In this document: one piece after another, positions 3,528 to 61,600 of the stretch
Numbering within the stretch: the first letter of the stretch is position 1
Layout: every line of letters begins with the position of its first letter
DNA from: Thermoanaerobaculia bacterium
GTDB lineage: Bacteria; Acidobacteriota; Thermoanaerobaculia; Gp7-AA8
Reading direction: 5' to 3'
Length of the DNA: 64,000 nucleotides
NCBI GenBank assembly: GCA_046594105.1
Contig: JBKJQB010000010.1
Coordinates: 14,096 to 78,095 of the forward strand
Translations under genes and position numbers: made by a program
Notes under the pieces: generated by a model
Database searches by the model: none
What the model saw: the letters and a program-made list of their open reading frames with translations, nothing else
What the model was told of the DNA's origin: nothing

Positions 3528-4274
3528 CTACTGTCGCGCGTCCGTGGCCGTCGAATCCGCCGCCAGCACCTTCACCGAACCACCGCGCGCGAAGAAGGTC
3601 GAGCGGGTCAGCCAGTTCTTGTCCGGGTAGTAGGCGAAGACCGCGGTGCCGCCGCGCAGCGTGTTGATCACCTTGTCGGCGATCTCCTGGCGTACCGCAG
3701 GGCATCCCCAGCTGCGCCCGAGCCGGCCGAGGGCCCGGATCGCCTCGCCGCTGACGTAGGAGGCGCCGTGCATGACGATGGCTCGGTCCCAGGCGCGGTC
3801 GTTGATTCCCGCCTCGAGGCCCTTCAGACGTAGCGAGTAACCGTTGTGCCCGAAGTAGGTGTCCGCCGTGACGAACAGACCGAAGCTCGTGGCCAGGCTG
3901 CCGGGATCGTTGGAGAAGAAGGAGGTGACGTTGCCGCCGCTGTTCTTCCCATGCGCCACCAGCTCGCGGAACAACAGCTTCCGCGTGGTCAGATCGAACA
4001 CGAAGAGGCGAGGCTGAGACGAAGGCAGCGAGTAGTCGATCACCGCGAGAATGTTTCGGCGCGACACCAGGCCGCGTGCCCCGGCGCATCGAGTGGCATC
4101 GAGCGCCAGCGTGAGGACGTCGGCTCTCAAACCCGGGGCCTGATGGAGGAGCGTCGGAAGGATCGTCTCGGAGGATCCGTGCGTGCAGGCCGCAGCCGAC
4201 GCCGTCTGGGGAACCAGCAACAAGGCCAGCGCCATCGCCGAAAAGAATCGTGTCAATCTCGAAAAAGCTCTCAT
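3528..4274 (-). CDS. L,D-transpeptidase-like (YkuD_2 family) secreted protein
   Basis: Signal peptide MRAFSRLTRFFSAMALALLLVPQTASAA. Motifs HGKNSG...MHGASYV...SWGCPAV match the murein L,D-transpeptidase catalytic-domain family (H / G-C). Confidence 0.6.
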   Translation of the reverse strand: MRAFSRLTRFFSAMALALLLVPQTASAAACTHGSSETILPTLLHQAPGLRADVLTLALDATRCAGARGLVSRRNILAVIDYSLPSSQPRLFVFDLTTRKLLFRELVAHGKNSGGNVTSFFSNDPGSLATSFGLFVTADTYFGHNGYSLRLKGLEAGINDRAWDRAIVMHGASYVSGEAIRALGRLGRSWGCPAVRQEIADKVINTLRGGTAVFAYYPDKNWLTRSTFFARGGSVKVLAADSTATDARQ

Positions 4275-4425
4275 TCTTGAAAGTGTCTGCGTCCGGGACC
4301 GACCGTCAACAGTCCGTGGATGATAGCAAATAACCTGGAAAAGGCGAGACGAGCTACAAGGCAGGACGGCCTGAGCCACTCCGGAAGCCAGATTGTGCCG
4401 CTCACTTGGGGTACCCGGCCCTCAG

Positions 4426-5049
4426 TCAGTCCGAGCCCTTCCTCATCACCCAGGTGGTCATGCATCGGCTGTCCTGGACGACGGTGGTCTTGATCGGATC
4501 GACGAGGGTCCCGCCCAGTCTGGAAGTCCACTGCAGCAGCATCGGCTCATCGACCAGAAACCTCTCCGAGCCATCGGGAAGCAGAAACCGGCGGCCGGAT
4601 AGCAGACGACAGCGCGTCTCCATGCCGATGTTCGACGCGAGGCGGCAGAAGAAAAGACCATCGTCCGCAAGAAGACGCCACGTCCCCCGCAGCATCGCCT
4701 CGAAGTGCGCTTCATCTCTGGCAAAGTGCAGGACGGCGCTGCTGATCACGACATCGGCGATGCCATCCGGGAAGCTGTTGGATTCCAGAGGCTCCGCGCG
4801 GAAGTTCGTGGGAGGAAGTGTGGGGGCAAGTTCTGCCGCGAGCGCCTGCACGGCAGCGATCGCTCGCGCCTCGGAATCGATGGCCGAAACCTCAAAGCCC
4901 TCGCGCAGAAAAAAGGTCAGATTCCGCCCGCCGCCGCATCCCGCGTCCATCAGGCGCTGTCCCGGCTGGATGCGACCGCGCTGGATCTGATCGAACAGGT
5001 AGATGTCCATCTGCCCGAAAATCGCGGCGACGTCGGTCATGCCAAGCAT
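4426..5049 (-). CDS. Class I SAM-dependent methyltransferase
   Basis: Motif I LMDAGCGGGRN and the post-I acidic residue (SAIDSE). ~207 aa. Start at MLGM. Confidence 0.7.
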   Translation of the reverse strand: MLGMTDVAAIFGQMDIYLFDQIQRGRIQPGQRLMDAGCGGGRNLTFFLREGFEVSAIDSEARAIAAVQALAAELAPTLPPTNFRAEPLESNSFPDGIADVVISSAVLHFARDEAHFEAMLRGTWRLLADDGLFFCRLASNIGMETRCRLLSGRRFLLPDGSERFLVDEPMLLQWTSRLGGTLVDPIKTTVVQDSRCMTTWVMRKGSD

Positions 5050-5625: not shown

Positions 5626-6819
5626 ATGGAATTCGACGTCTTCTTCTCGATCAGCCAGACCGACGTTCGCGGATGGATTCCCAGCGAACGGGAGATGTTC
5701 GAGCATTTCTTCGAGCAGGTGGAGCTGGCCGACCGCCTCGGATTCGGCACCGCCTGGATCGCCGAGAGCCACCTGTCGAGCGAGGTGCAGAAGGGCAATC
5801 CGGGTGCGGTCATCCCGCATTTCGTCGGAGAGATCGGGCTGAACACCGACATCCTGCAGCTCGCCCATCGCATCTTCGCCAGAACCAAGCGCATCGGCGT
5901 CGGCTCAGCGATCCTCAACATTCTCTGTAACGGCGGACCGATCGCCGCGGCCGAACGGGTGAAGACGTTCCTCACCCTCCATGGCCTCAATCCAGCCGAG
6001 GAGCGTCTGCTGCACATCGGTTTCGCCTCGGGGCGCTTCCCGTTCATCAACATCCCTTACGGCATCGTTCCGAGGAATCCGGTGGAAGAGGCCGCGTGGC
6101 CGGTGGTGAAGAACAAGATCTTCGAAGAAGCCACGGAGATTTTCTTGCGGTTGCTCCGAGGTGAGACGCTCAGCTCCTCAGACATCCATTCGCAGACGCT
6201 TCGGCGCGAGGACTTTCGGAGCGATGCCGACTGGCAGCGCGTCGTCGACGCCGCTGGCCACACAGCAGTGTTGCCGCAAGGGATTCCGTTGGAACGGCGA
6301 TGGATCTTTCCCAATTTGAAAATTGTGCCGCAGGAGCCGCGCCTGGAGCTGCTGCGGTTGCTGATCGGATCGCACGATCCGCAGGTGCAGGGCTTCGCGA
6401 ACACGTGGATGCCGGTCGGCGTCTTCAATCTCTCGATCACGCCGGGCGGCGAGATCGAGAAAACGAACGCCTCGATGCAGACGGCCTATCACCCCAGCGG
6501 CGGCGGCTGGCATCGCCGCCTCATGCCGCGCACGGTGCTGGTGTTCATGAACGAAGATCCGGACAAGGCCGCGGCAGAAGCGCGCGAGGCGCTGGCGAAC
6601 TACTGGAACGCTCTGGAAGGGACTCTGGATGAGGAGAAAGTGCGCAAGGCCACCGACAACGCGCTGATCGGCGACGGCCCGGCAATCCTCGAGCAGATGA
6701 TGAAACGCTTCCACCCCGAAGACCGGCTGATGCTCTGGTTCGACTTCAACAACCACGACTCGCGGCGCGTGATGAAGAACATGGCCGATTTCATGGCCGC
6801 GGCGAAATCGCTGGCCTAG
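5626..6819 (+). CDS. LLM-class flavin-dependent oxidoreductase (luciferase-like monooxygenase family)
   Basis: N-terminal ...FGTAWIAESHLS... TIM-barrel signature of the bacterial luciferase-like family. 397 aa. Start at MEFDVFF. Confidence 0.7.
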   Translation: MEFDVFFSISQTDVRGWIPSEREMFEHFFEQVELADRLGFGTAWIAESHLSSEVQKGNPGAVIPHFVGEIGLNTDILQLAHRIFARTKRIGVGSAILNILCNGGPIAAAERVKTFLTLHGLNPAEERLLHIGFASGRFPFINIPYGIVPRNPVEEAAWPVVKNKIFEEATEIFLRLLRGETLSSSDIHSQTLRREDFRSDADWQRVVDAAGHTAVLPQGIPLERRWIFPNLKIVPQEPRLELLRLLIGSHDPQVQGFANTWMPVGVFNLSITPGGEIEKTNASMQTAYHPSGGGWHRRLMPRTVLVFMNEDPDKAAAEAREALANYWNALEGTLDEEKVRKATDNALIGDGPAILEQMMKRFHPEDRLMLWFDFNNHDSRRVMKNMADFMAAAKSLA

Positions 6820-7079
6820 GCCGGCACGGCCGGCATCCTGAGCGAGGGCACCGTGTAGGAATCGCAGAGATTGATGGCGAGAAACGCGAACCTCCCGATC
6901 GAGCGTCCTTCTCCCCGCACACGGGGAGAAGGTCCGCGAAGCGGGGATGAGGGGTCCTGCTTCGTCGAGTGAGCGCCCCCTCATCCGGCCTTCGGCCACC
7001 TTCTCCCCGTTCGCGGGGAGAAGGAACTCTCGATGAAGATTGGTGGAAAGAAACCGAGTGCCATTGCGCCGCTCCGCTG

Positions 7080-7799: not shown

Positions 7800-9290
7800 T
7801 TGAACTCCACGGGACAGCGTCGCAGGATCGCGCTCGTCGCTGCGGGGGCCGTCGCCCTTCTCGCGTGGTTTCTTTTCCTGCTCTCGCGAACCTCGATGGC
7901 TGCGGCCGGTCCGGACGGCTCGGGCTACATGAACGAAGCGCGCATGATCTCCGACGGCCGCCTTCGCATGGAGATCTCCCCACTGCGCACGCTGGGGCTG
8001 GATCGCAGCTTCGCGAACGTGTTCACCCCTCTCGGTTTCAACGTTGCTCCCGAGGGCACGATGGTCCCCACCTATCCCGCTGGGTTCCCGCTGCACATCG
8101 CGCTGGCGGCACGACTGGGCGGCTGGAAGACCGCGGCGTTTGCCATTCCGCCGCTCGCCTCCGCCGGGTGTCTGCTGATGATCTTCCTCGTCGCTTCCCA
8201 GCTCGGGCTGGGACGCGGCTGGGCCATCAGCGCGGCGCTCGCCCTCGCCGCCTGCCCGGTGTATCTGATGCATTCGCTCCAGCAGATGAGCGACGTGCTG
8301 GCCACGTTCTGGACGCTGGTGGCCCTCTGGTGCGCGCTCCGTGCGAACGAACGCGCTGACCGTCGCATGCTGCTCGCGGCGGGGGCGGCGTTCGCCATCG
8401 GTGTGTGGGTCAGACCGACCAACGTTCTGGTAGCCCTGCCGCTGGCCTTCGCGCTGCGATGGCGTCCCTCGCGACTGGCGATCGCGGCTGCCGCGGCGCT
8501 GCCGTTCGCTCTCGGATTGATGTGGTGGAACGCAGCGCTTTACGGCAGTCCGATTTCGACCGGCTACGGAGGGTTCGGCCAGGTCATCGACTGGTCGGCC
8601 CTGAGAACCTGCCCTCCGCGCTACGGCACCTGGCTGCTGGAGATGGTCACGCCGTTCATTTTTCCCACCGGCCTGCTCGTGGTATTCGATCGACGAGTCG
8701 GACGATGGAACCGCTCTCTGCTCGGTGTCTGGTTCCTCACCTACTTCGCCTTCTACTCGGTCTACAGCGTCTGCGACTCCTGGACGTACACACGATTCCT
8801 CCTTCCCGCTCTTCCCGCCTTGATCATCGGCGCACTGTTCGTGATGCGGGATCTCCTCGCTGCGCTGGCGGGAGTGCGGTGGATCGCGGTCGCCCGTGGA
8901 GTGGCCATCCTGCTGATCCTGGCCACCCTCACACTGCAGATTCGGAGTGATGATCGCCGCGACCTCCTGCACACCCGGCGCGGTGAAGCGATCTACCCCG
9001 ACGTCGTGCATTTGACCGAAGCGACTGTTCCCCGCAATGCCATCGTCATCAGCGGCTTGATGAGTGGTTCGTTTCTCTACTACAAGGGCCGCTTCACGGT
9101 CCGATGGGATCAGATCGACAACGATCAGTTCCAGCTATTGAGAGCCTACGCCGCGAACGCCGGTCTGCGATGGTACGCAGCGTTGTCGGACGTGGAGTTG
9201 AGCCCGGAGGACCTGCCCAGGAGGTTCGACGCGCAGTGGAAGTCTCTCGGCAGAGTTCGTGACGTCACGCTATGGGAGCTGAAGGACTAG
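7800..9290 (+). CDS. GT-C fold membrane glycosyltransferase (GT39/ArnT/PMT-like)
   Basis: About 12 TM helices over ~496 aa. An early loop motif YMNEARM resembles the DE(A/S)R motif of the PMT/ArnT family with D->N. Start uncertain. Confidence 0.5.
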   Translation: MNSTGQRRRIALVAAGAVALLAWFLFLLSRTSMAAAGPDGSGYMNEARMISDGRLRMEISPLRTLGLDRSFANVFTPLGFNVAPEGTMVPTYPAGFPLHIALAARLGGWKTAAFAIPPLASAGCLLMIFLVASQLGLGRGWAISAALALAACPVYLMHSLQQMSDVLATFWTLVALWCALRANERADRRMLLAAGAAFAIGVWVRPTNVLVALPLAFALRWRPSRLAIAAAAALPFALGLMWWNAALYGSPISTGYGGFGQVIDWSALRTCPPRYGTWLLEMVTPFIFPTGLLVVFDRRVGRWNRSLLGVWFLTYFAFYSVYSVCDSWTYTRFLLPALPALIIGALFVMRDLLAALAGVRWIAVARGVAILLILATLTLQIRSDDRRDLLHTRRGEAIYPDVVHLTEATVPRNAIVISGLMSGSFLYYKGRFTVRWDQIDNDQFQLLRAYAANAGLRWYAALSDVELSPEDLPRRFDAQWKSLGRVRDVTLWELKD

Positions 9291-9996
9291 GCCGGGCCGG
9301 CACGGCCGGCGGCGTTGGTTGCCCAAGGCTCCGCCGTGATCACGCTCCAAGACGTTCTTCCGCGCAGGCCCTAGGAGAGAAGGAAACCAGAAAGCGGAAA
9401 GTGGAAGGCAGAAAGCCCTGAGCAATGGACAGCGCGCACGCTGCGCCTGAGAGAAAGAAACGGGCGCGGAGGCAGAGCGCCGGAGGCGCGATTGACCTTA
9501 GCCCAGGACTTCAGTCCTGGGACTTGAGGGGCTCCCCCAGACGAGTCCCGGAGGGACGATTGACGATGCTTCGTTGCGACATGTTCAATCGTCCCTACGG
9601 GACTTACTTTTTAGGGGCATCAAACCCAGGACTGAAGTCCTGGGCTAAGTTCAATCGTCCCTACGGGACTCGCAAATCCGCATAAAACCTGGCTGTTTCT
9701 GGGAAGCGGCGTGGGGTGGCGGGCGGGAAGCGAAGGATCTGCAATCACGCGAATGCCGCTTGCGACAGTCGGGGCGATGCAGATCCTTCGCCGTCTACGC
9801 GGGCTCTAATGAACTCTGGTCCGAGGCATCAAGAGGATCGAACTCACACCCGCGACGTTGCAGATCCTTCGCCGTCTTCGCGGCTCAGGATGACGGGAGG
9901 GATCTTGCAGCCGGCAGGATTACCTTCTGATTTCTGCTTTCTGCTTTCTGGTTTCTGCTTTTCCGCCTCCCCGCGCACTTGACCTAGAATCCATCG

Positions 9997-10623
9997 ATGC
10001 CTGTCAGGCGGTCCATCTTTGTCAGTGCGTCCGAGGATCGGCTGCAGAAGCTCATCGTGGAACGGCTGGAGCCGGGGGCAGATAAGGAAAGCATCGACCG
10101 CCGGCTCTGGGATCTCTTCGGTGAGGAGTGGTGCATCATGACCACCGACCTGATGGGATTCTCCCGGTCGGTCTCCCGCTTCGGCATCATCCATTACCTG
10201 CAGACCATCTACGAGTCGGAGCGGCTGCTCGTGCCGGTGGTCGAGCAGCACGACGGCATCATGCTGAAGATGGAAGGCGACAGTTTCCTGATCATCTTCC
10301 GGAACGTGCAGAAAGCACTGTTCGCCGCCGTGAGCATGCAGCGGAAGCTCAAGCTCTACAACGAGACGAAGCCGCCGGAAGAGCAGGTCCTGCTGGGCAT
10401 GGGCCTGGGATACGGCCGGGTCCTGCGCATCAGCGACGAGGATGTCTTCGGGATCGAGGTCAACGCTGCCTACGTCCTCGGCGAGGACATCGCCGGCGCC
10501 TACGAGATCCTGGTGTCGGCCGCCGTGCGCGAGGCTGCTGGTGACATGAAGGAAATCTTCGAAGAGCTCCACGACGCCCCCGCCGGCATCGGCACCGCAT
10601 TCCGCGTCCGCTACGACGCGTGA
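9997..10623 (+). CDS. Stand-alone class-III nucleotidyl (adenylate/guanylate) cyclase homology domain protein
   Basis: TTDLMGFS (metal Asp 1), GIMLKMEGDSFLIIF (metal Asp 2) and VNAAYVLGEDIAG (transition-state/N-R region). 208 aa with no sensory domain. Confidence 0.5.
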   Translation: MPVRRSIFVSASEDRLQKLIVERLEPGADKESIDRRLWDLFGEEWCIMTTDLMGFSRSVSRFGIIHYLQTIYESERLLVPVVEQHDGIMLKMEGDSFLIIFRNVQKALFAAVSMQRKLKLYNETKPPEEQVLLGMGLGYGRVLRISDEDVFGIEVNAAYVLGEDIAGAYEILVSAAVREAAGDMKEIFEELHDAPAGIGTAFRVRYDA

Positions 10624-10752
10624 TCAGCGGCTCGACGCGGCCGGCACGGCCGGTGGCGTTGGTTCGCAAAGCGTCCGCCACGATTTTCGCCTCAGCCGCG
10701 GTCACTCGGCCGTCTTTGATTGCAGAAGTGGAGAAGGTGCCGAAGGCCGTTC

Positions 10753-58673: not shown

Positions 58674-61600
58674 TCAGTGGCGTCCGGCCCGGCGGCGTGG
58701 AGTGACCACCGGCGGCGGCGGCGTGACGGGTGCACCGCCCCCGGCAACCTTGACCTTCTGCTTGATCTGAACGCTGCCAGAACTATTGGTGACCGTGAGG
58801 ATCATGTCGTACGTTCCGGCACCGGTCGCGTACTTGTGCGTGGTCAGCAGACCACTGCCGTGCGCCGTCTTGTCGCCGTAATCCCAATCGTAGGTATGGG
58901 AGCCGCAGCCGAAGGTGTAGCCGCCATTCGGATACGCCTTGAAGCCAATCTCTTCATCTGCGCCGCAGTCCCCGTAGCTCGAGGTGCAGCCGCTGACCGG
59001 TCCGGTGTATCCGACGTACGCGTTGTCCGTGGTCATCGGTGGGCAGGAGCCGTTGAAGACGGCCACACGCACCGGCTGAGTGAGCGAGACCGATGAACCG
59101 GTAGGATTGCCGATGGTGACAGTCACCGTGTAGTCGCCGGGCGCCGCAAATGCATGCTGCGGTGAGGGCGAGCTCGAAGTGAAACCATCGCTGGTGCGCC
59201 ACGAGTAGGTGTGAGTCCCGCAGGTCAACGGGTATCCGGCCGACTGCACGCTGAAGCCCAGAGACTCGCCCGAGGCGCAGGTTCCACCCGGCTTGCACGC
59301 GGCCGACTGCGCGCTATATGCGAGCGAGACGTTCGTCGGGTTCAAGGCTGGGCAAGTGGTCACCGGAGGAGGCGGTGTCGTAACGGTCCCCACCTGCACC
59401 GGCTGCGCGATGGTGATTTGCTGATAGCCATTGAAGATGGTCACCGAGGCGCTGTAGGTGCCGGCCGCGGCGTAGGCGTGAGCCGGCGGGATCTGTCCCG
59501 TGCCGGTGGTGTTGTCACCAAAGTTCCATGTGAACGTGTGGTCGGCGCAACCGAAGTTGTACCCGTTCTGAGAGTAAGCATGGAAGGTGACCTGCTCGCT
59601 GGGGCTGCAGTTGCCGTTCGATGAAGTGCAGCCCGAGGAGGCGCCGTTGTAGCCGATGTAGGCGTTTGTTGTGGAGAACGTTCCGCACGGGCTGCCGCCA
59701 CCCGGGTTCGGAGTGGGAGTCGGCGTCGGAGTGGGGGTCGGAGTGGGGGTGGGCGTAGGAGGCGGCGGGCTGTTGCCCACCAGAACGCTCGCGGTCAGGT
59801 CCTTCGGGTTTCCACCGTTATCGATGTGCACAGTGACGTTGTACGTGCCGTTCGCGGCGAACGTGTGAGGTGGCGCCGAGGCGGTTGACTGGGTGTTGTC
59901 TCCGAAGTTCCACGCGAACTTGTCGCATTCCTTGTTGGGGTAAACGCGGAAGTTCACCGTCTCACCCGAAGTGCAGGCCGTGTAGGGACTTGAACAATTC
60001 GACGACACCCCCAGCCATTGAATCGAAGGTGAGTCAGAGCTGCCACAGGCACTTGGAGCCAACGCGATCGTATCGGCCAGCGCCTGCGAGCCGAGGGCAT
60101 TGCTCACCGTGACACTGACTGTGTATGTCCCCGGCACAACGATGGACGGTTTGAAGGTTGCGAACTGAGTTCCGGCGCCCGCCAGTCCGTTCACGACTGA
60201 GGGTCCGCTGACCGTCCACGTGTAGTTCCACGACGGCTGACTGGCGGCGGACACGACATTGAATGTGCAGGGGGTTCCAATTGTGGCGCCGCACGTCTTG
60301 GACAGCGTTGCGCTGGGTCCGGTGAGCGATCCGAGGGTGCTGCTGGTCGCGGTGAATCCCTGGCAGCCGGCACCGAGCGCCGTAGCGCTCACGGTGACCA
60401 CCAGTCGCGCCTTCAATGCCACGCTCCCGAACTTGGATCGGGGAACGATGAACGAGGGAACGCTGGCCAGACTGGCCGATCCGGTCGCGGTGGCCAACGA
60501 CGTACCGTTCGCATCGAGCAGATCCCATGTGTACTGAGCGGTAGTGGAGGAGGCTCCGCCCGGAAGGTCAGCCGCAATCGAGGAGACGCGACCAGCGGCC
60601 GGGAAGGTCACATTCACCGTGTCGGCGGTGGGCTGGCCTACGCGGAAGGCGAACGGCGTTGACGCGTAGACGAAGGAGCCGATGGAATAGACGGCATCCG
60701 CAGAAGTGGGATTGAACGCCGCGTCATACGGCCCGTAGTGGGCCAGGTAGTTCAACGTGTGGGTGCCGCAGACTCCCGCGCTGGTGGATGCCGAGGGAAT
60801 GGCGCGGGATGTCGCGGCATCCAGACGCCATTCGTTGAAGTGACTCTCCACCGCACCGTCCGAGGCGTCGATGAACTCGTCGCTGGTGACGATGGGAGCG
60901 GCGGAGCTTGCATCCGGCTGCAGAAAAAGCAATTCAGGACGACCCTTGACCCCAAAGCGAACCTGAGGAGCCTTGATGGTGACGCTGAGGGTGTCCGTAA
61001 TGTTGGGATCGAGGGCGCTGGTTGCAACGACCTGCCGAGCCACCGAGGCCGACCCAACCACCGCGGCATATTGATGCGAGATATCGGCACCAGGGAGAGC
61101 GTTGCCGATGGGAGTGTTGTCCCCGAACGACCAATTGACCGACGGAGGAGTGACGGCAGACGACCCGCTGGCGAACGTAATCTTGTCACCATAAATCGGG
61201 CCGGCATTGGCCACGCTCGCGGCGTTGGGATTGACCGTTTCATACGTGGTCTTCACCCTAGCGATGATCGAGTCGTTCCCTTTGATCTCGTAAACGTCGC
61301 CGAAGCCAGTCGCCGCTACCACGAGGTAGTACTTCGTTCCGCTCTTGTAGACCTGCGCGTCATGAAACGTGCTGGTCTGCGTCGGGAAGACGTATCCCTT
61401 GTTCGATCCGATGGCCGTGTAATAGTTGGCGAAGTAGTTTCCGAGCGGAACGTCGGTCGGAACGGTGCCGGCCAGCTTGAAGAGCCGGACGTTTCCCGAA
61501 GCGTTTGCCTCAGGACCGAAAACCGTGAGGTATCCGGCCCCGTAGTGGATGTTCGGATAGCCTCCGAAGTAGGCGGTCCCGACCGGGTAATCACCAATGT

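Follow-up and report, generated by a model that had tools for sequence, protein, structure and literature searches.

We analyzed a 64-kb stretch of a contig from a Thermoanaerobaculia bacterium (64,000 nucleotides, hereafter the window), in which the 706-bp intergenic spacer at positions 9291 to 9996 is unusually rich in repeats. This spacer is probably a mosaic of nonautonomous palindromic mobile repeats, similar to bacterial interspersed mosaic elements (BIME), repetitive extragenic palindromes (REP), and REP doublets forming hairpins (REPIN), that was built up by insertion in a Thermoanaerobaculia-like genome. Three or more repeat families, each known also from outside the locus, make it up, namely, a 284-bp palindromic element (module 1), a second long-palindrome element (module 2), and tandem arrays of 7-nt units (heptad arrays). 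The locus is a new instance of a REP/REPIN/BIME-like cluster and contains a known Rfam family, Acido-Lenti-1 (RF01687), so that an odd "structured" spacer would fall into an ordinary class of objects, nested REP-like mobile repeats.

An initial annotation had described a gene-free region of ca. 700 bp packed with direct and inverted repeats. This description was borne out, since the 706 bp are intergenic and every repeat listed is present, each in two to three copies (pattern search, up to 3 mismatches) versus 0.00 expected from 100 dinucleotide-preserving shuffles of the 64-kb window. A repeat finder run on the region returned 6 direct families and 11 inverted pairs, and neither of the two open reading frames (ORFs) inside the spacer (86 and 88 amino acids [aa]) had a match in Pfam. 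Folding of the spacer with RNA parameters gave z scores of -10.6 and -12.3 relative to shuffles, one value per strand; a strong fold of both strands is expected from inverted repeats at the DNA level. For the elements within 9350-9996, no further copy was found elsewhere in the 64-kb window.

Two Acido-Lenti-1 units in a palindromic module

Module 1 (9424-9707, no strand) is REPIN-like and symmetric about position 9574. The covariance-model (Rfam) search that the initial annotation had proposed returned two Acido-Lenti-1 matches over the RF01687 gathering score of 37 bits, both spanning the full model (1-46), and by this score both belong to the family. One full unit, composed of hairpin 1, a GCTAA linker, and hairpin 2, lies at 9476-9521 on the minus strand (54.5 bits; E = 4e-11), and the other lies at 9625-9670 on the plus strand (57.5 bits; E = 6.5e-12). 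Between them are two half-units that hold only the linker and hairpin 2. The first, GTCCCggaGGGAC (9544-9565, minus strand), has 3 mismatches to the 22-mer GTTCAATCGTCCCTACGGGACT and was scored as a hairpin-2-type stem, and the second, GTCCCtacGGGAC (9583-9604, plus strand), is an exact copy of this 22-mer and is followed by a T-rich run. The two full units and two half-units, mirrored in strand, give the unit order (-)(-)(+)(+).

Two repeats singled out in the initial annotation turned out to be parts of these units. The inverted 24-mer TTAGCCCAGGACTTCAGTCCTGGG corresponds to hairpin 1 plus the GCUAA linker of an Acido-Lenti-1 unit; the pair is real, but its second copy is at 9625-9648 (minus) and not at 9634-9657. 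The element reported as 21 nt long corresponds to the remaining linker plus hairpin 2. It is also real, but it extends over 22 nt, GTTCAATCGTCCCTACGGGACT, at 9583-9604 and 9649-9670, with the inverted copy (3 mismatches) at 9544-9565.

Single-stranded DNA of module 1 folds back into one extended hairpin (-91 kcal/mol; z = -10.8), which is the inverted doublet folding as a single long hairpin that characterizes REPINs. Acido-Lenti-1 hairpin 1 consists of an 8-bp stem and a 4-nt loop and is followed by CTAA (complement TTAG), with CTAG or CTAC in relatives. This is the arrangement found in REPs, a short hairpin with an unpaired GTAG-like tetranucleotide at its foot, and CTAC is the complement of GTAG, the canonical REP head.

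Acido-Lenti-1 as an interspersed repeat

Acido-Lenti-1 was described, on the basis of covariation, as a probable noncoding RNA of Acidobacteria and Lentisphaerae that is sometimes found near group II introns (Weinberg et al. 2010; PMC2864571), and Rfam types RF01687 as "Gene; sRNA." In the published seed (89 sequences), the copies of Lentisphaera araneosa are clustered, in tandem and inverted, 74 to 200 nt apart (PMC2864571), a repeat-like behavior unlike that of a single gene. In L. araneosa NZ_ABCK01000001, four units at 416513-416780 follow each other in strict tandem every 74 nt, and the periods of other arrays are 110, 115, and 192 nt; regular tandem arrays are thus also built from the units in this genome (PMC2864571, supplementary file 183).

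A scan of 185,579 species genomes for CCCAGGNNTGAANNCCTGGGCTAA (hairpin 1 plus CTAA) returned at least 116 loci in at least nine phyla (Acidobacteriota, Verrucomicrobiota, Planctomycetota, Bacteroidota, Omnitrophota, Patescibacteria, Armatimonadota, Cloacimonadota, and Chloroflexota). Single genomes carried multiple loci, at least 11 in the case of Chitinophaga fulva and at least 10 in one metagenome-assembled genome (MAG) of Acidobacteriota. Among the matches listed, the two free inner base pairs of hairpin 1 were nearly always complementary, and the triplet after the 8-bp/4-nt hairpin was CTA 188 times, with no other triplet exceeding 25. In 52 of 135 copies in this set, hairpin 1 was followed by a second, perfect hairpin of at least 5 bp; other lineages had tails of their own. 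Of the neighboring pairs no more than 400 nt apart, 48 were inverted and 16 direct (again among the matches listed), i.e., mostly inverted doublets as in REPs and REPINs, and the spacing of the -+ pair of full units in the window (103 nt) is typical. In the literature searched, we found no paper tying Acido-Lenti-1 to REPs or Y1 enzymes.

Dispersed copies and an empty orthologous site

The closest relative among the matches listed was a Thermoanaerobaculia MAG, JBDSGC01, with copies on four contigs, where modules 1 and 2 are both found at sites unrelated to the window locus. By blastn, window positions 9421-9692 (module 1) match L047:4223-4494 at 92% identity and L090:171-411 at 93% (the L designations denote the loci retrieved), and the L090 version is a longer palindrome, with arms of ca. 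90 nt. Module 2a (9708-9802) aligns at 85% identity with the minus strand of L047:1162-1255, and module 2b (9852-9896) aligns at 93% with L047:1149-1193, a site ca. 3 kb from the module 1 copy of the same locus. The parts are also found separately. Module 1 is by itself in L090 and beside one heptad array, without module 2, in L047:4140-4500, while L047:1100-1310 holds module 2 between inverted heptad arrays, without module 1. The initial annotation had taken 9375-9968 for one element between its own termini, and this has to be abandoned: its parts are found apart in L090, L047, and L177, and the whole has no second copy in the window, the 116 genome loci, or 51 metagenome loci.

The spacer is preceded by a PMT_2-type glycosyltransferase ORF (7800-9290, plus strand) and followed by a class III cyclase-like ORF (9997-10623, plus strand). 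Using homologs of the cyclase protein, we reached four loci (L175 to L178). In L176, the same two genes (69% aa identity for PMT_2 and 85% for the cyclase) are separated by only 36 bp with none of the repeats, so the repeat block, of which the window carries all modules, is a lineage-specific insertion and dispensable. None of the repeats was found either in the 181-bp spacer of L175 (cyclase, 88% aa identity), which follows an MgtC-like gene. In L177 (cyclase, 85% aa identity), also with an MgtC-like gene upstream, the 174-bp spacer contains the right arm of module 2, a short remnant of the left heptad array, and a right array of 3.5 units (ca. 455 to 480), and window positions 9862-9996 are 80% identical to this syntenic spacer. 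The PMT_2 gene itself is missing in L175 and L177, where the MgtC-like gene directly precedes the cyclase gene. L178 has a more distant cyclase homolog (72% aa identity) and other neighbor genes and is uninformative for the spacer. Across these sequences, the locus is a hotspot of gain and loss.

A TAGAAT box lies at 9985-9990 (plus strand), 6 nt 5' of the cyclase ATG, 3' of all repeats and separate from them, and is a probable -10 element. TAGAAT is present 6 to 8 nt before the cyclase ATG in the window, L175 (ca. 810), L176 (ca. 3093), and L177 (ca. 497), regardless of the upstream sequence, and this conservation in four orthologs suggests a leaderless or near-leaderless mRNA. A promoter scan of the region (sigma-70 consensus) found no full promoter. 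The terminator scan of the region found one terminator-like site, the half-unit at 9583-9604 (plus strand), versus 0.7 expected in shuffles, i.e., no excess.

Probable nesting of module 1 in module 2

Module 2 (9708-9896) includes a hairpin, module 2a (9708-9802, plus strand), whose 14-nt arms, GCGAAGGATCTGCA (9730-9743) and TGCAGATCCTTCGC (9778-9791), enclose a 34-nt loop. Module 2b (9852-9896, plus strand) consists of a duplicated right arm, TGCAGATCCTTCGCCGTCT, and then the outer terminus GCTCAGGATGACG (9883-9895), and the outer terminus is common to L047, L149, and L177. The direct repeat given as 26 nt in the initial annotation is real, with a length of 25 nt and positions 9778-9802 and 9859-9883. 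The outer arms that it had proposed are indeed near reverse complements (84% over 31 nt), but they are actually inverted tandem arrays of 7-nt units. The left array (9382-9416, plus strand) reads GGAAACC AGAAAGC GGAAAGT GGAAGGC AGAAAGC (Tandem Repeats Finder [TRF] period of 7, 5.0 copies), and the right array (9925-9964, minus strand) reads, on the plus strand, TTCTGAT TTCTGCT TTCTGCT TTCTGGT TTCTGCT TTTCC (TRF period of 7, 5.3 copies over 9925-9961, 90% matches).

Directly before the start of module 1, the sequence CCTGAGC (9417-9423, plus strand) is a probable remnant of the outer left arm of module 2. In L047, read on the reverse strand, module 2 is uninterrupted, with cGTCATCCTGAAC running directly into GGCGTGGGCGG and later into GAAGGATCTGCA, a loop, and TGCAGATCCTTCGCCGTCTGCGCGGCTCAGGAAGAC. 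At the point where the L047 copy runs through, the window has CCTGAGC, then 9424-9707, and then GGCGTGGGG. Judging from three copies, an alignment by eye, and blastn boundaries, module 1 is best read as a 284-bp insertion nested in module 2. The trinucleotide AGC stands at both module 1 junctions in two of the three copies, and no target-site duplication was evident outside the heptad arrays.

Heptad arrays accompany module 2 in every relative, although their units (CAGAAAG type or CTAGCAG) and numbers of copies (3.5 to 5.5) vary. In L047, inverted arrays at 1100-1140 and 1275-1310 bracket module 2, and another one (4140-4190) precedes module 1. A metagenome scan with the module 2 19-mer TGCAGATCCTTCGCCGTCT returned 51 loci, nearly all of them chance matches in coding sequence, and the only true relative was L149. 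This locus has the module 2 plan, with the ends GTCATCCTGAGCG and GCTCAGGATGAC and the inner hairpin GCGAAGGATCT/AGATCCTTCGC, but its heptads are different, (CTAGCAG)5 at ca. 600 to 640, and are found on one side only. The ends of module 1 are thus defined by three copies.

We considered placing module 2, whose end GCTCAGGATGACG has a complement starting with CGTCATCC, in the CGTC-tagged REP superfamily (Di Nocera 2013). This was rejected because the 8- to 9-bp stems and 4- to 5-nt loops are absent and there was no sequence match in that paper. The only literature matches to GTCATCCTGAGC were primer sequences without any relation to the repeats.

Linkage to Y1 HUH transposase genes

All ORFs in the 116 loci were screened for Y1 transposases with IS608 TnpA and Escherichia coli YafM as query sequences, which served only as leads; only the IS608-like query gave matches, all of which were then confirmed by Pfam and NCBIfam. 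Eight of the 116 motif-found loci (among the matches listed) carry a PF01797 gene (75 to 105 bits) located 24 to 302 nt from a copy of hairpin 1 plus CTAA. A Y1 gene would be expected in ca. 0.3% of random 8-kb pieces, as estimated from the published ca. 1.7 genes per carrier genome. The hosts are Patescibacteria, Verrucomicrobiota (two), Lewinellaceae, Chitinophaga (two), Hymenobacter, and Acidobacteriota. At L095:2083-2106, a copy of hairpin 1 plus CTAA overlaps the final codons of the Y1 gene; REP insertions inside tnpA-REP genes of another subclass are found in published work.

Starting from the proteins, four homologs of the Acidobacteriota type (67 to 87% identical to the acidobacterial protein) led to seven loci, all of which have hairpin 1 plus CTAA, CTAG, or CTAC 17 to 132 nt from the gene. 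Six of the seven share a polarity, with minus-strand copies upstream and plus-strand copies downstream (L119 and L120 have an upstream copy only), and 19 such hairpins were no farther than 400 nt from a gene, with a single one at a greater distance. Three Bacteroidota homologs (Alkalitalea, Spirosoma, and a Flavobacterium MAG) had no hairpin 1 and carried instead hairpin-2-type stems identical to window positions 9591-9603 and 9657-9669. In Spirosoma and the Flavobacterium MAG, GTCCCgtaGGGAC is upstream and GTCCCtacGGGAC downstream of the Y1 gene, the same polarity as in the Acidobacteriota type, and in Alkalitalea, both copies are upstream. Hairpins therefore flank the Y1 gene at all 10 protein-found loci (seven queries), which is the arrangement of a REPtron, here in relatives and outside the window.

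The linked proteins checked all had the motifs DH.H, WQ.GY, and Y...Q..HH. The last is the signature of TnpA-Y1 subclass 1.2 (Quentin et al. 2018; PMC6006769), and both Acido-Lenti-1 hairpins are physically linked to genes of this subclass in many phyla. Subclass 1.2 has been described as low copy and devoid of insertion sequence (IS) features or associated repeats or REPs (PMC6006769), so a clade of Y1 HUH enzymes reported as an orphan without cognate repeats appears to have them.

Proposed mechanism

The mechanism proposed here is modeled on IS200/IS605 TnpA and E. coli TnpA-REP (PMC6006769, PMC8266576), with the core of module 1 probably being a DNA hairpin that a tyrosine (HUH) transposase mobilizes rather than a small RNA (sRNA) gene. 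Each unit would fold its hairpins in single-stranded DNA, e.g., in the lagging-strand template, and a subclass 1.2 Y1 HUH enzyme would then bind the hairpin foot and the unpaired tetranucleotide (CTAA on the Rfam strand and TTAG on the opposite one). The strand would be cut and rejoined, and doublets could in this way be excised or copied into new intergenic sites. The unit that spreads would be an inverted doublet such as module 1, seen as a REPIN-like doublet of two inverted Acido-Lenti-1 units around two inverted half-units, and this one would have landed in an older module 2 that was itself bracketed by inverted heptad arrays. We infer the mobilization of Acido-Lenti-1 units by a subclass 1.2 enzyme, the cleavage site, and the presence of a gene for such an enzyme in the source genome. 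Effects on the neighboring genes, such as protection of transcript 3' ends, termination, or insulation, are possible.

For the family as a whole, we lean slightly toward Acido-Lenti-1 being not an RNA gene but a two-hairpin, TTAG/GTAG-tagged single-stranded DNA substrate of TnpA-Y1 subclass 1.2. It would then be part of a REPtron-like system in Acidobacteriota, Verrucomicrobiota, Planctomycetota, Bacteroidota, Patescibacteria, and other phyla, with module 1 as a gene-less offspring of the REPIN type.

Alternative explanations

Several observations weigh against a mosaic of REP-like repeats moved by such an enzyme. Within the window, Acido-Lenti-1 units are confined to this one spacer, and no Y1 gene was found in the 64 kb or in the four short loci of MAG JBDSGC01. 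NCBIfam places the linked enzymes in IS200/IS605 (NF033573, transpos_IS200; 57 to 85 bits with a cutoff of 55), while on the model of REP-associated tyrosine transposases (RAYT), NF047646, they score 22 to 33 bits with a cutoff of 80, i.e., outside the RAYT clade, and the flanking copies in L049 and L095 are direct, as at the ends of an IS. Module 1 is known from three copies only, which leaves its ends and target site uncertain, and the proposed Y1 mechanism leaves the heptad arrays unexplained. Finally, stem covariation would equally fit an RNA function, and the counts of stem mismatches (21 G.T versus 22 A.C), whose equality does not point to selection acting on a single transcribed strand, come from a noisy, relaxed copy set.

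We consider it unlikely that the two Acido-Lenti-1 matches are small trans-acting RNA genes and the other repeats incidental, even though both scores exceed the Rfam gathering threshold, a T-rich run follows hairpin 2 at 9591-9603, and the motif was rated a probable RNA from covariation (Weinberg et al. 2010; PMC2864571). The two copies are on opposite strands, as arms of one palindrome, numerous copies exist in many genomes, mostly as inverted doublets, and at the orthologous locus they are absent. Furthermore, each hairpin is also found as a lone repeat, both flank Y1 transposase genes, the stems show no excess of G.U over A.C, and the promoter scan found no promoter-like site. A structured 5' leader or riboswitch controlling the cyclase gene, to which the position directly 5' of the cyclase ORF and the very stable fold might point, is highly improbable. 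Orthologous cyclase genes (85 to 88% aa identity) have spacers of 36, 174, and 181 bp without modules 1 and 2a, the conserved TAGAAT box, 6 to 8 nt from the ATG, is downstream of every repeat, and both strands fold equally well. The absence of the region in orthologs, together with the box between the repeats and the ATG, makes a large structured RNA unlikely as well. Of the suggestion of a MITE-like (miniature inverted-repeat transposable element) or structured-RNA locus in the initial annotation, what stands is the presence of dispersed, apparently mobile repeats, including a curated RNA-motif family; the region is neither a single MITE nor a large structured RNA.

A single MITE would mean that 9375-9968, ca. 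590 bp with the heptad arrays as terminal inverted repeats, was moved whole by a DDE transposase. The arms are 84% complementary, and an element of ca. 230 bp bounded by heptads and with the same inner module 2 occurs at an unrelated site in L047, so a smaller heptad-bounded unit may be mobile. There is nevertheless little likelihood of the larger one, because the 590-bp unit was found nowhere else and module 1 occurs without module 2 and without the right array (L047:4140-4500 and L090). The heptads of L149 differ (CTAGCAG) and are on one side only, the length of the array differs between orthologs (3.5 units in L177 versus 5.5 in the window), and no target-site duplication was identified outside the arrays. 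The copies might instead be internally deleted derivatives, like MITEs or palindrome-associated transposable elements (PATE), of an active IS200-type IS with these hairpins at its ends, and not REPs of a domesticated single-copy enzyme. That the linked enzymes pass transpos_IS200 and fail the RAYT model agrees with this, as do the direct copies in L049 and L095, which resemble the left and right ends of IS200/IS605. We doubt it, given the inverted flanking copies in six of the seven Acidobacteriota-type protein-found loci, sometimes several per side as in REPtrons, and the mainly identical polarity in the three Bacteroidota loci. Each protein was found on only one to four contigs, and the clade was described as low copy and without IS properties (PMC6006769).

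Comparison with known systems

The spacer repeats, which we regard as probable REP-like mobile elements, share with RF01687 the two-hairpin layout, the conserved GCUA linker, an acidobacterial host, and the clustering of copies seen in the seed. Rfam, however, lists an sRNA gene of no known function, whereas the copies here form the arms of a palindromic DNA element that is dispersed, either hairpin is also found alone, and both are tied to Y1 genes. In addition, the hairpin 1 plus CTAA core is present in many more phyla than the name of the family implies. A curated Rfam "sRNA" family appears to be a REP-type DNA element.

In common with REP/REPIN/BIME and their RAYT (TnpA-REP) enzymes (Nunvar 2010; Bertels & Rainey 2011; Ton-Hoang 2012; Corneloup 2021, PMC8266576), the repeats have a short hairpin with an unpaired foot tetranucleotide (TTAG, CTAG, or GTAG), are intergenic, are mostly inverted doublets, and form mosaic clusters with other repeats, and inverted copies flank the enzyme gene as in a REPtron. 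The enzyme, in contrast, is TnpA-Y1 subclass 1.2 (Y...Q..HH) and not a class 2 RAYT (YIxxNP), and it fails the NCBIfam RAYT model. Also different from REPs, the unit has two unlike hairpins and its usual tag is TTAG rather than GTAG. IS200/IS605 and PATEs resemble the present system in having a Y1 HUH enzyme of the same Pfam/NCBIfam family and subterminal hairpins, with no need for long terminal inverted repeats and no obvious target duplication. Unlike in IS200/IS605, the enzyme clade has been reported as low copy and without IS features (PMC6006769), the flanking copies are mostly inverted and multiple, and there are far more short units than genes.

In class 3 TnpA-Y1/TIRYT of Acidobacteria, the genes for the tyrosine transposases have atypical repeated secondary structures or long inverted repeats on their flanks, with ca. 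600 copies in Solibacter (Di Nocera 2013, PMC3733652; Quentin 2018, PMC6006769). The acidobacterial host is shared, and these structures are a possible analogue of module 2, but the NHVH, YV..EQ, and CnGA foot signature is absent from the enzymes found here, and this comparison revealed no link between module 2 and a transposase.

If confirmed, these results would mean that REP-RAYT-like systems reach well past Proteobacteria and that some covariation-backed "RNA motifs" may be single-stranded DNA hairpins, and a defined enzyme-substrate pair would be on hand for in vitro tests.

Other repeats and rejected candidates in the window

Among the candidates that we rejected, a tRNA remnant at 9803-9851 was supported by neither ARAGORN nor Rfam, and a CRISPR array was discarded, as the copies belong to a palindrome and are inverted, with irregular distances between them. 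The Rfam match to RsmY at 9425-9549 (22.6 bits versus a threshold of 57), a subthreshold match to MIR537 in the region, and a match to sR1 elsewhere in the window (4420-4469) were treated as noise.

Outside the palindromic core, the spacer begins with a separate small family, the post-stop repeat GGCCGGCACGGCCGGCGGCGTTGGTT... (GGCCGGCACGGCCGGCGGCGTTGGTTCGCAAAGCGTCCGCC...; 9295-9349, plus strand). It follows the stop codons of three plus-strand ORFs within 4 kb (6819-6834, 9295-9320, and 10639-10664). The copy at 10636-10708 is 92% identical to L108:393-464, from the related MAG, and the copy at 9295-9349 is 82% identical to L108:461-407. The repeat may represent an independent family that is terminator-like or REP-like.

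At 2210-2290, the window contains a palindromic repeat with CTAG/CTAC tags (CTAGCGCCGGC...GCCGGCGCTAC) followed by GATCGCTTCGCTCAGGAAC, 97% identical to L047:4566-4629. Several REP-like families, GTAG-tagged ones among them, seem to be present in this genome. A hexamer/18-mer tandem repeat (TCGGAG/GGAGTGGGGGTC; TRF score of 46 to 88) at 59704-59765 is unrelated to the repeats of the spacer.

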